This document shows, piece by piece, positions 5,740-46,635 of a stretch of 64,000 bases of DNA. The position numbers and the translations under genes are program-made. Each line of letters starts with the position of its first letter. Position 1 is the stretch's first letter. Below the pieces are notes generated by a model. That model made no database searches. It was not told the DNA's origin and saw only the letters and a program-made list of their open reading frames with translations. Source of the DNA: Octopus vulgaris (taxonomy: Eukaryota); assembly GCA_951406725.2 (NCBI GenBank), contig OX597825.1, positions 60,450,001 through 60,514,000 on the forward strand. The letters are read 5' to 3'.

Positions 5740-7090
5740 GCTTCCCCCCCGTTATTGTGTTTGAAATGGAGGCTTATAAGGCCGAGATTAGTTTCGGTTA
5801 AGACATTTGCTATTTTGCTTTTAAGTTTAGTATCACAAGTATAGAATATTCTTCATCGGAATCCGCTTAATTCTAGAGCCTGGTTATAGTAAGTAGCGTG
5901 GGTATTAAATATTTCTTCATTCGCTGATAATTAGAAATTCTTATTGGAATGCCTGTAATTACGCTGACAAGGGTTATTGTAGGATGATTTGAAAGGACGT
6001 TTATATAATGCAAAGTTTGGTAAGGCTTTTGAAATGGGTAATATAAATTTGTATTTAAATTGAGTTTGAGATCCCCAAAATTTAGCACCTTGGTATTTGT
6101 TTACGAGCAACAATCAATGCTTTGTCTAAGAGAATCGGCGATATCGATGCATAGTATCAATATAAAACTGATATAACAAACTGAATAATATTAATACGGT
6201 TTTTATCCTTGAGGGAATAAAAACCAGTTAATGACATCGTCTGTTGAGTTCCAAAGAGGGAGCGCAACATTAGCTCTAACACGTTCTATTATACATTTAC
6301 TAATTTTGTCTAAATCTGACTTTGTGGGACAGATGAGTCGGGTGGAGAGGAAATTAAACTTGAGGTCTTTCAGGGTAAAATTAAGTATTTGGGGTTCATA
6401 TTGTTCAGTTCTGTTTAATAATTTCAGATCTACGATAAGCTAATAATGTGTATTATTAGTGTTTAGCTTTTTTAATATTAAATTGTTGTATGTTTCCAAA
6501 AGTAAAGAAAAGAGGTTGCCAGTTTTATCGAAGAAAACATGTAGATTTGGCGAAGATTATATTTCTGATATAGTTTTGGGAAGCTCATTCTAGAATGAGT
6601 TAGTGTAGTTAGAAAAGTTTAAGTTTTTAATCACACGCATAAGATCCTTCTCAAAATTTGCTAACAGAGGAATTGGAGGCGGGTTTTTATACGATTTCTG
6701 GTTGTACGTATTCTATTCTATTAATGGATTCATTCGTCTTCTAAAATAGGGCTTCTATAAATGTATTCCATGATGGAATTGGGATATTTTTAGCAGAGAT
6801 GCCTAAGAATAGTTTCTACCTTGGTTTCGTCAATCTGCAGGACTCTATCAAGCAAATTGTATATGATCATAATGAAAAAATATTTCCTATATAACGTTGC
6901 TTTTACAGAGAATGAAAAAATAGTTTTACCATTCCATAGCAAAACCGTTGTACTACACTTTAATAATGTTTGCCATCTTGGCATCTGAAGCAGCTGGATA
7001 TATGATAATTTGGCAAAAAGAACCGGCTATTACAAGCAAAAATAAATATTGAAAAAAGAAACCGCATTAGAGCAAATTTGGACATACGAG
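5740..7090 (-). pseudogene. Decayed Penelope-like element reverse transcriptase (Penelope/Poseidon type)
   Basis: ORF 5873-6088 YYPFQKPYQTLHYINVLSNHPTITLVSVITGIPIRISN resembles the PLE RT thumb motif (Y.P..KP.....YI...SNHP......IP..I..R.S). A degenerate R-Y-R-D-like motif lies near 6130-6150. Frameshifted; outer limits approximate. Confidence 0.7.
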
Positions 7091-19090: not shown

Positions 19091-19510
19091 AAGGCGGCGA
19101 GCTGGTAGAATCGTTAGCACGCTGGACGAAATGCTTTGCGGTATTTCGTCTGCCGCTACGTTCTGAGTTTAAATTCCGCCGAGGTCGACTTTGCCTTTCA
19201 TCCTTTCGGGGTCGATTAAATAAGTACCCGTTACGCACGGGGATCGATATAATCGACTTAATCCGTTTGTCTGTCCATGTTTGTCCCCTCTGTGTTTAGT
19301 CCCTTGTGGGTAGTAAAGAAATAGGTATTTTGTCTGTCTTTATGTTCTGAGTTCAAATTCTGCCGAGGTCGACTTTGCCTTTCATCCTTTCGGGGTCGAT
19401 AAATTAAGTACCAGTTACGCACTGAGGTCAATATAATCAACTTAATCCCTCTGTCTGTCCTTGTTTGTCCCCTCTATGTTTAGCCCCTTGTGGGCAATAA
19501 ACAAATAAGA
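19091..19510 (+). mobile_element. Meta-domain-like tRNA SINE, head-to-tail dimer
   Basis: Head aggcggcgagctggtagaatcgttagcac, box-B-like gagtttaaattcc, central gactttgcctttcatcctttcggggtcgat. A second unit starts at ~19324. agaatatattcgcct is duplicated at 19054-19068 and 19508-19522. Confidence 0.9.
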
Positions 19511-21247: not shown

Positions 21248-22121
21248 GAATTTGCTATCATCATCATCATATTCATCATTCAATGATACTGTGCTGAATA
21301 TTCCTGAATACAGCAATGCCACAAATATTAACACCAGTTAGAGTCAATACAAACATTATTATTGTTGTAATTACCCGTAAGATAATTAACATAGCTATCA
21401 TAGTAATCACATATCTTGCACTAAAAGTAAATTAGAATATTTAGTCGGCATAAAAAAATTGAACTTCAACGCTACAATCCTTCACTATACACACATTACT
21501 AAAACCAACCGACTTAACCACTAATGATACACCGAGTATTGAACAGACAGTCACTAAAACACTGCTTCCGTCAACACGAGTAGACAGTGAAACTAATGCC
21601 AAAAACGCCCGTCATCATATGCTCATGTGTTCAAGATTTGCACATAGTATTAAAGCATTTCCGCTGTCCGACGACATTTCCTGTTGGAGGAAGACGTTAT
21701 GGCAGCATTGATAAAATCAACATATACAGATATAATATGTATATACATACACACACACACACACACACTTGTATACATATATGTGGTGCCTGTGTAAATC
21801 TGAGCCTGTGTGTGTGTGGACATATATACATATGTGTATGTATGTATGTATGTATGTATATATGAATATATTTATCGACATAAGTTGCACAGTGACTCAA
21901 TCGCCCAGATTTTCGTGCATGGAATTAACAAAGCATTTGATAAAATATGATAATCAGTTTTGTTATATTTTCCTGTTTGTATGACCTTATATATATGTGT
22001 GTATATATATAAATATGTATATATATATATATATATGTAGGTCCCGGGTTGATTCGGGGTTAACCACAGTAAATAAGGTACTCAAAACATAGTAGAGTAA
22101 AATTAATTTATTATATAGAAG

Positions 22122-22174
22122 GAGCTTCTACAGGACTAGAACTGTTTCATTCAAGAGAAATCTTCAGGAAGCTC
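22122..22174 (-). ncRNA. Type I hammerhead ribozyme, copy 1
   Basis: Reverse complement reads GAGCTTC CTGAAGA tTTC-tctt-GAAt GAAACAG-ttctagtc-CTGTA GAAGCTC: 7-bp helix I, intact core, GUA cleavage triplet. Confidence 0.8.
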
Positions 22175-22212
22175 AATAGATAGTAGAGTAAAATTAATTT
22201 ATTATATAGAAG

Positions 22213-22265
22213 GAGCTTCTACAGGACTAGAACTGTTTCATTCAAGAGAAATCTTCAGGAAGCTT
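22213..22265 (-). ncRNA. Type I hammerhead ribozyme, copy 2 (91 bp from copy 1)
   Basis: Identical to copy 1 except for the terminal base of helix I. Confidence 0.8.
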
Positions 22266-22281
22266 CCTGAAATCTTCAAGA

Positions 22282-22334
22282 GAGCTTCCTGAAGATTTCT
22301 CTTGAATGAAACAGTTCTAGTCCTGTAGAAGCTC
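22282..22334 (+). ncRNA. Type I hammerhead ribozyme, copy 3 (inverted)
   Basis: gagcttc ctgaaga tttctcttgaat gaaacag ttctagtc ctgta gaagctc read directly on the + strand. Confidence 0.8.
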
Positions 22335-22348
22335 CTTCTATATAATAA

Positions 22349-22416
<68 letters not shown>

Positions 22417-22427
22417 TATATATATTA

Positions 22428-22650
22428 TAGTTGGCAGAAACGTTAGCACGCCGGACGAAATGCATAGCCGTATTTCGTCTGCCGTTACGTTCCGAGTTCA
22501 AATTCCGCCTAGGTCCACTTTGCCTTTCATCCTTTCGGGGTCGATAAATTAAATACCAGTTACACACTGGGGTCGATGTAATTGACTTCATCCCTTTGTC
22601 TGTCCTTGTTTGTCCCCTCTGTGTTTAGCCCCTTGTGGGTAGGAAAGGAA
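22428..22650 (+). mobile_element. Meta-domain-like SINE
   Basis: ggcagaaacgttagcacgccggacgaaat...gagttcaaattcc...ttgcctttcatcctttcggggtcgataaatt...gccccttgtgggtag. Confidence 0.9.
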
Positions 22651-22704
22651 TATATTATATACATTTTATATAGATACACACACACCCACACACTCACTCA
22701 CACA

Positions 22705-45384: not shown

Positions 45385-46395
45385 TATCATCAATCCCAGT
45401 GTACAAAATGTACTTATTTTATCGACCCTGAAATGATGAGAGTCAACGTCGACCCCAGTAGAATATGAAACCACACCGTAAAGCCTGAACTTATGCTGCT
45501 ATGTATTCTGACGGCACCGTAACAATTCTGCCAGCTCACTACTTTCACCACTCTGTACTATAATGATTTCAAATCTTCGTACAGGACCAGCAGTTTTGGA
45601 TGAGAGAGGAAGGCGATTAAATCCCACTTCCTATTTGCCTGGTACTTATTGTATTGACCCCGAAAGAACGAAAGGCAATGTAAATCTCGGTGAAATTTGA
45701 ACTTACTACTAAAAGATGGAAGAAATAACTGCTAAACATTTTCTCCGACATGCTAACTGGCCTATCAGCTTGCTGCATTAACTACCTATGTAATAATGAT
45801 TTCCAGTTTTGGCACAAGGGTAGCAATTTTAGGGGAGGGGTTTACATCGACCCCAGTGTTCAAGTGGTACTTATGCCATCGACCCCGAAACGATGAAAGC
45901 AAAGTCAAACTCAAAACGTAAAGACAAATTAAGTGCCGGTAAGCATTTTTCCCGGCGTGCTCACCGCCACCTCACCGCCTTACATCTATATAATAATGAT
46001 TTCAAATTTTTGCTACAAGGGCAGCTTGTGGGAGGGGATTAAATCGATTACATGGACCCCTGTGCGTAACTGGTACTTAATTTAACGAGCCCTAAAGGAT
46101 GAAAGGCAAAGTCGACCTCGGCGGAATTTGAACTCAGAACGTAGCGACAGACGAAGTACCTATTTCTTTACTACCCACAAGGGGCTAAACACAGAGAGGA
46201 CAAACAAGGATAGACAAACGGATTAAGTCGATTACATCGACCCCAGTGCGTAACTGGTACTTATTTAATCGACCCCGAAAGGATGAAAGGCAAAGTCGAC
46301 CTCGGCGGAATTTGAACTCAGAACGTAACGGCAGGCGAAATACCGCAACGCATTTCGCCCGGTGTGCAAACGTTTCTGCCAGCTCACCGCCTTCT
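45385..46395 (-). mobile_element. Head-to-tail array of about five Meta-domain-like SINE units
   Basis: The atcgaccc(c)gaaa.gatgaaaggcaaagtc module recurs at ~45420, 45655, 45880, 46085 and 46270. Units are separated by taatgatttc(a/c)a tails. Confidence 0.85.
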
Positions 46396-46418
46396 AGAAG
46401 TAAGATATTACCGAATAA

Positions 46419-46635
46419 AAGGCGGTGAATTGGCAGAATGGTCACCAGGCCAGTAAAAATGCCTTGCGATATTTCGTCCGTCTTCACAATTTAAGTTCAA
46501 ATACGTCAGAGGTCGACGTTGTAGGTTATCTTTTCGGGGTCGATAAAATTCGTCAGAGTTGAGAACAGGGGTTAATGTAATCGTCTAGGCCCTGCCCCGA
46601 AACTTCTGGCCTTGTGCCATAATTTGAAATCAATA
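46419..46635 (+). mobile_element. Meta-domain-like SINE, inverted relative to the upstream array
   Basis: aaggcggtgaattggcagaatg...aagttcaaat...ttcggggtcgataaaat...ctggccttgtgccataatttgaaatc. Confidence 0.8.

Follow-up and report, generated by a model that had tools for sequence, protein, structure and literature searches.

What are three near-identical hammerhead ribozyme motifs, two in tandem on one strand and one inverted, doing side by side in a (TA)n tract? The question is raised by a stretch of 64,000 nt of the Octopus vulgaris genome (contig OX597825.1, positions 60,450,001 to 60,514,000, forward strand; hereafter the window), in which a sequence-only reading had seen a triple hammerhead cassette that could release a 91-nt RNA or cut host transcripts. 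The cassette is almost certainly a stub of a Penelope-like element (PLE), made of three pieces of the end repeat (pLTR) of an element of the Hydra clade. Rather than forming a device of their own, the hammerheads, the palindrome, and the 91-bp repeat are copies of that pLTR.

Layout of the cassette and its hammerhead motifs

Element positions are counted from the A that opens helix I in the parent (natural copy L056), taken as +1. In this numbering, the ATG lies at +184 and the predicted cut separates +45 from +46. The cassette and its flanks are then as follows (window coordinates).

21988..22036, no strand: left (TA)n target, the likely primer for the long-arm cDNA; its last 4 bases are also element +138..+141
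22033..22173, minus strand: copy 1, the long arm, pLTR +1 (22173) to +141 (22033), with 2 differences from the natural copy L056
22122..22174, minus strand: hammerhead 1, with a 7-bp helix I to which the added G at 22174 belongs; predicted cut after 22129
22129..22219, minus strand: hypothetical 91-nt monomer between the two predicted cut sites (a folding prediction)
22172..22174, minus strand: joint of a putative template jump, a 3-nt overlap (GAG) in which the added G, +1, and +2 of copy 1 are also +91..+93 of copy 2
22172..22264, minus strand: copy 2, pLTR +1 (22264) to +93 (22172), which creates the 91-bp period
22214..22264, minus strand: hammerhead 2, with a 6-bp helix I; predicted cut after 22220
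22265..22281, plus strand: 17-nt insert at the head-to-head junction, made of overlapping hammerhead pieces (sense +5..+11, antisense +17..+8, antisense +24..+17)
22282, plus strand: added G before +1 of copy 3 (T in the parent), or alternatively the last base of the antisense +24..+17 piece
22282..22334, plus strand: hammerhead 3; predicted cut after 22327
22283..22350, plus strand: copy 3, the short arm, pLTR +1 to +68, without differences from L056
22351..22408, no strand: right flank, (TA)n then (TG)n, the likely primer for the short-arm cDNA

All the parts first described, a 91-bp tandem of two antisense copies and one inverted sense copy, are present. The direct repeat of the minus copies has 97–98% identity; over 68–69 nt, the plus copy shows 100% complementarity to each minus copy. 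The palindrome formed by copies 2 and 3 is real too, with perfectly complementary arms of 68–69 nt separated by 18 nt, and not with the arms of about 75 bp that had been estimated. Both flanks of the cassette are (TA)n, and a target-site duplication is unreadable within such a microsatellite. The ORF of the parent is absent locally, in keeping with the description of an insertion in (AT)n that lacks any ORF. The insertion was also rightly judged to be recent: copies 1, 2, and 3 differ at 2, 2, and 0 positions, respectively, from L056, a copy with an intact ORF. No host exon was recognized in the window (0 of the 40 frames scanned, from a total of 119 longer frames, reached the Pfam cut-off); the cassette may lie inside a host intron.

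The three hammerhead cores are identical (22142–22167 and 22233–22258 on the minus strand, 22289–22314 on the plus strand), with three exact matches against 0.43 expected by chance with at most two mismatches. The CUGAAGA/GAAA core, the GUA triplet, and the looped helix III (4 bp, with a loop of 8 nt) are as first read. The motifs satisfy the definition of a type I hammerhead (CUGANGA/GAAA/NUH, helices I–III, helix I open), with a helix II of just 3 bp. A 7-bp helix I had been attributed to all three; it occurs in copies 1 and 3, whereas copy 2 has A before +1 and only 6 bp. The parent helix I has 6 bp, and the seventh pair is supplied by the added G, which is absent from the parent. The hammerhead match expected from Rfam was not obtained, either over the window at the gathering score or over 21900–22700 at E ≤ 10, where all 51 matches are of the hairpin type and 0 are hammerheads; those of the miRNA type are there because of the cassette palindrome. 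The hammerhead call therefore rests on the core letters and the helices. As isolated 55-nt motifs, the three fold no better than shuffled sequences (z of −1.1, −1.1, and −0.1). The U-U at the first position of helix II, taken earlier as unusual, is indeed present in the copies and nearly invariant in the family (position 14 is changed in 0 of 209 arms and position 25 in 1 of 214). It is a clade trait, since U stands on both sides of helix II in 14 of the 25 published Hydra families, as counted from File S2 of PMC8557442.

The parent element and its head-to-head stubs

The proposal that the type I hammerheads derive from the pLTR of a PLE holds, the cassette matching the pLTR of an element with a reverse transcriptase (RT) and GIY-YIG ORF. 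Parent units measure 4,784–5,743 bp from hammerhead to hammerhead (13 measured, among 20 long loci). They consist, in this order, of the hammerhead (+1..+51), the ATG (+184), a 713-aa ORF, and a long microsatellite-rich 3′ region. In L056, the 713-aa frame is open and contains RT motifs, with RWR at residues 38–40 and DKT at residues 117–119, followed by a CxCx5C linker, CxxC and CxH, plus a C-terminally placed GIY-YIG without CCHH (all read by motif). Many of the long copies (L051–L070) have a break in the ORF at one common point, close to residue 500. Their 3′ region is of about 2.4–3.4 kb, largely TA/CA microsatellite-like and variable in length.

By its motifs, the parent is assigned as a young PLE of the Hydra clade, with RWK/RWR and DKT, (TA)n targets, and a canonical hammerhead as marks of the clade in its motif definition (PMC8557442, section 11). 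The account of this clade by Craig et al. (2021; PMC8557442) also has in common with the parent the CxCx5C, CxxC/CxH, and the C-terminal GIY-YIG without CCHH, as well as U...U beside helix II in many families. On the other hand, the descriptive trait of a unit below 3 kb is not found in the parent (4.8–5.7 kb), and thousands of young copies are present here. Hydra-1_Obim of the same source has another protein and another hammerhead, as set apart by eye. The Naiad clade is ruled out for the parent, in which the endonuclease is C-terminal. A Pfam search with the parent ORF gave no RT or GIY-YIG match and a PDB sequence search nothing useful; its ESM Atlas neighbors (at 0.96–0.99) belong to the HTH_animal, GIY-YIG, and RVT_1 families, which is a lead only.

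The exact 27-nt core occurs 4,062 times (2030 + 2032) in the genome of 2.8 Gb and 227 contigs, and its reversed control 0 times. The upstream sequence of the parent accompanies 1,962 of the cores (986 + 976). Head-to-head core pairs with a gap of at most 30 bp are found at 781 sites genome-wide, with the same layout as copies 2 and 3; the palindrome is thus the standard stub of the family. The sequence-only reading had accepted that its novelty would vanish if all other copies were ordinary pLTR ends of full-length PLEs, and with 1,962 such cores and 781 such palindromes this is largely the situation. Among 50 listed junctions, 12 are perfect palindromes centered on AGCT, 13 have a common 7-nt centre, and 25 have other centres; with centres so varied, the junctions must have been made anew at insertion.

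The arm ends were sampled in the first 48 Mb of contig C1 (110 arms at 62 loci, 8 duplicate loci having been removed), a sample that favors young, undamaged arms because it was drawn from exact-match lists. In this sample, 58 of the 110 arms end near +141 (long arms), 50 near +68 (short arms), and 2 elsewhere, and 43 of the 45 head-to-head pairs associate a long arm with a short one. Position +68 is, in addition, the end of 6 of the 14 direct terminal repeats of long copies and, for this reason, appears to be an independent priming site. The pattern extends beyond this assembly, since joints of the head-to-head kind and the two arm ends are also present in contigs of four public runs. One or two Gs beside the cut site (+45..+49) are lost in 16 listed arms among 222, all of them at palindromic loci, through either read error or a real scar.

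Similar inverted-pLTR insertions are described for EN+ PLEs (PMC3846280; legend of Fig. 2 in PMC8557442), with head-to-head arms, a palindromic junction, a fixed tail that lengthens one of the arms, and partial tandems. The window cassette has the characteristics of such stubs, namely the pLTR of an element with RT and GIY-YIG, an inverted 5′-truncated copy, and a one-sided tail. The tail is of 30–40 bp in the described cases and of about 70 bp here. Relative to the insertions presented in these two sources, the present ones are distinct in that both arms stop at the first base of the ribozyme and in that the partial tandem is just 91 bp.

Starts at helix I, the added G, and putative template jumps

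Arm starts cluster at the base with which helix I begins, and not at the cut site. Among the 110 arms of the C1 sample, 33 start at +1, 30 at +2..+7, 19 at +8..+39, 0 at +40..+52, 27 upstream, and 1 beyond +52. For the base that precedes +1, we used solo arms, joined directly to (TA)n, because the ambiguity of palindromic junctions is absent there (77 rows, de-duplicated to 47 distinct sites). That base is G at 30 sites, T at 6, A at 6, and C at 5, and the G is single at 29 of the 30 sites, with one longer match (AGG). In the two controls, an added G is present at 1 of 24 sites in the +23..+29 window and in 0 of 11 solo arms at +40..+46 (Fisher p of 6e-7 and 9e-5, respectively). By count, solo starts at +1 are only about twice those of the control window (47 vs. 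24), and the contrast lies in the G. The extra G occurs with all three sequence variants, and the ORF-bearing copy L038 also begins with (TA)n, G, and +1. At palindromic junctions, 23 of the 58 Gs are preceded by CAG and could derive from the other arm.

In the parent, position −1 is a T; another base occurs in only 3 parent-type copies, and G in none, which rules out inheritance of the G from a parent allele. The parent contains splice-like signals: the AG at +1/+2 resembles an acceptor and is preceded by a pyrimidine stretch (upstream of +1, e.g., L056:1060-1092), and one word in the ORF resembles a donor. In Penelope of D. virilis, the 5′ end of helix I coincides with the end of an intron (PMC4209133). 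That the G-A-G would be the end of an upstream spliced exon is rejected, the upstream bases of that exon being found in 0 of 58 G-headed arms.

The starts and the G together suggest that the RNA of the element very probably has its 5′ end at +1, the first base of the ribozyme. A copied cap is probably the source of the added G, as an untemplated G has been read for L1 (PMC9341517). The G marks the RNA end better than it marks a cap, because the addition of C by a reverse transcriptase may take place at the end of any template. For PLEs, we found in the open-access literature no statement of a start at helix I or of an extra G.

Cleaved RNA as the template is not supported, with 11 solo arms starting at +40..+46 (3 of them exactly at +46) against 24 in the control window. 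The template for reverse transcription would be the uncleaved RNA, with a possible minor use of cleaved RNA. For Poseidon PAc of Anolis in vitro (Frangieh et al. 2024; PMC11167929), the main template is uncleaved RNA and no ends occur at the ribozyme cut site; two RT start sites bracket the tail, and both target strands are cut and extended. The present family is alike in its two internal RT start sites that define the tail, its AT-rich target, and its uncleaved template. It differs from PAc, where the hammerhead overlaps the start codon; neither an RNA 5′ end at helix I nor an added G is mentioned in the sections of that report drawn on here.

The 91-bp tandem is unique in the 2.8 Gb among periods 76–106 (1 site); 2 sites occur at periods 126–156. 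The 3-nt overlap at its joint is as expected if a cDNA with an added C re-entered an RNA. Jumps from +1 into other parts of the RNA recur (L015, L021, L066, L118, L142). At L142:1428-1945 (G000:C7, about 106788700-106789220), there is a cassette of four hammerheads, with an inverted +68 arm and three tandem copies. The periods of this tandem are 154 and 157, with different joints, one of which has an added G. Both L142 jumps land near +156, a hint of an RNA 3′ end or of a preferred entry there. As a proto-retrozyme, L142 is a better candidate than the window cassette. The period-134 duplication at L143, which comprises a short arm and the flanking microsatellite, looks like a local duplication and not a jump. 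The 17-nt centre of the window cassette, with its overlapping hammerhead pieces, is built as in end joining of the polymerase-theta type.

Proposed insertion mechanism and predicted fate of the cassette RNA

The explanation that we regard as likely overall is that pieces of a PLE pLTR were produced by priming at two points and run-off at a probably capped RNA start, with all three pieces likely laid down in one insertion event. Insertions stop in (TA)n at either +68 or +141, and those with two arms have nearly always one end of each kind. The enzyme would nick and prime both strands of the TA target, one strand per site (+68 and +141), and reverse transcription would run off the RNA at +1, the transcription start, with the G as the copied cap. 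The long-arm cDNA would reach this end and, through its added C within a 3-nt match, re-enter an RNA at +93; on running to +1 again, it would yield the 91-bp tandem. The two cDNA ends would finally be joined head to head and patched with short self-templated pieces.

Priming at two sites is, in our view, the probable origin of the two arms. A single primed cDNA could instead fold back at +1 on its AGCT palindrome (+1..+4) and copy itself into the inverted arm, which would stop at +68, where an AT-rich spot pairs with the target. Self-priming of this kind has been proposed for the head-to-head repeats of PLEs (PMC3846280), and it would account for the AGCT-centred junctions, a piece of this type being also found at the beginning of the 17-nt insert of the window. 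Agreement between arms is of less help: at the variable site +34, both arms agree in 58 of 59 pairs and therefore come from one source element, as they would with two RNAs or with a fold-back copy. The exception (L073) does not fit fold-back. Furthermore, +68 ends direct terminal repeats (the 6 of 14 above) and solo arms (L113, L115, L119, L123), where there is no fold-back, and junctions of the L139 type, with an added G on both arms and 1–2 nt between, are too tight for a hairpin. Since both strands are also cut and extended in vitro (PMC11167929), we consider fold-back unlikely. A related doubt concerns the G. Position +1 could be a preferred stop or a processed end, with the G supplied by terminal transferase activity or by the cDNA folding back over one base on the mirror of helix I. 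The complementarity of helix I predicts exactly C as the next fold-back base, the AGG site shows a longer match, and 49 of the 110 arms start at +2..+39. However, fold-back should often add more than one base, and 29 of 30 Gs are single; internal truncations rarely gain a G (1 of 24), and the context of +1 is pyrimidine–purine (T then A). This reading of +1 and the G is accordingly judged doubtful.

In parent-type RNA, folding predictions give a hairpin over the cut site a probability of 0.78–0.90, vs. 0.04–0.20 for helix I. The added G lifts the predicted helix I from 0.04–0.12 to 0.9. The hairpin, of 8 bp, is family-wide in the pLTR at +43..+61 and takes in the 3′ strand of helix I together with the cut site; it could be a built-in off switch that the added G reverses. 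The plus strand of the cassette has a single sense hammerhead, which comes after two antisense copies and is predicted to be fully paired (penalty of 74 kcal/mol). On the minus strand, with the whole cassette, the predicted probability of the hammerhead fold is about 2e-6 for copy 2 and about 6e-4 for copy 1. An RNA with the tandem only is predicted to form crossed helices III (0.88 and 0.93) and helices I (0.77 and 0.92), that is, the skeleton of a dimeric hammerhead; the full double-hammerhead fold, with helix II enforced, has a probability of 0.0015. When the inverted arm is added, the probabilities of helices I and III all drop to 0. The idea that a host RNA could be cut in either orientation is left unsupported, the inverted arm being predicted to block cleavage on both strands. 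With the ribozyme predicted to be off in the template RNA, where the hairpin over the cut site outcompetes helix I, and to be blocked by the inverted arm in read-through RNA, the cassette would most likely be inert debris. Release of a 91-nt RNA would be possible solely from a transcript starting inside the junction, with the antisense arm left out. Metazoan PLE hammerheads cleave weakly in vitro or require a protein, according to the data consulted in PMC11167929 and PMC4209133.

The cassette could still be a working retrozyme or RNA-cutting device, which would release the 91-nt RNA or cut host transcripts on either strand. The dimeric skeleton predicted for the tandem and the effect of the added G on helix I go in this direction, and retrozymes are proposed to derive from pLTRs (bioRxiv 10.64898/2026.07.22.740005). 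We give this little chance, given a single copy at periods 76–106 and 2 sites at periods 126–156, helix probabilities of 0 with the inverted arm, a 3-bp helix II with a negligible full double fold, the poor cleavage of PLE hammerheads in vitro, and the size of the described retrozyme RNAs (170–400 nt). As in the metazoan non-LTR retrozymes presented in PMC7229834 and bioRxiv 10.64898/2026.07.22.740005, the type I hammerheads are head to tail, loop III is palindromic, and there is a relation to PLEs; the monomers reported in these sources are of 170–400 nt, vs. 91 nt here. The cassette is moreover one copy and not a family, is attached to an antisense arm, and is known here from DNA alone. It does contain at least two tandem hammerhead units, as retrozymes do, but a dispersed family with monomers of 170–400 nt was not found (periods 76–106 and 126–156). 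By family and by size it is no retrozyme; the cassette is real, but it is an ordinary PLE stub that has gained one further copy by a putative jump. It is very unlikely that the 91-bp duplication arose in assembly or sequencing, as an artefact on a stub with the usual two arms. The period is unique in the assembly, the joint has no independent read support among the listed contig pieces of the public runs (none bridges it), and the small G losses in assembly palindromes may be read errors. However, the overlap at the joint uses the added G of the family, the two tandem copies carry different private changes, and the same design recurs with other periods in L142 and L015.

In itself, the cassette is debris from an element of a known kind, and only its 91-bp tandem is unique. 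It has value as evidence on the role of the PLE hammerhead and on the origin of tandem and inverted insertions. What stands out is a signal shown by the family as a whole, namely that the RNA starts with the ribozyme's first base, a directly testable clue to the copying of the element. Hundreds of near-identical stubs, together with an intact ORF, lead to sharp predictions: a start at helix I, priming at +68 and +141, an uncleaved RNA, and jumps from the capped end.

The cassette also shows how a retrozyme could start. There is a slight chance that it is a retrozyme at birth, in which tandem units built by jumps and a helix I activated by the cap G would allow a transcript started at +1 to form a double hammerhead and to release the 91-nt RNA. 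If so, head-to-tail units would result from template jumps at capped ends (91 nt here, 154 and 157 nt in L142), and the copied cap G would complete the 7-bp helix I and switch the ribozyme on. With the start site of the element at the head of each arm, a transcript from copy 2 would leave out the antisense arm. The 91-nt RNA would be roughly half as long as any retrozyme monomer described. The cap-adjacent ribozyme of the parent would be a decapping switch that removes the first 45 nt.

Other repeats occur in the window. At 5838–6712 (minus strand) lies an old, broken relic of a related Hydra-like PLE, with about 40% amino acid identity to the parent ORF. A SINE-like repeat of very high copy number is present at 22432–22641, where it adjoins the cassette on the right, at 19140–19507, and at about 46190–46490; the one at 19140 is a tandem pair of 184 bp.
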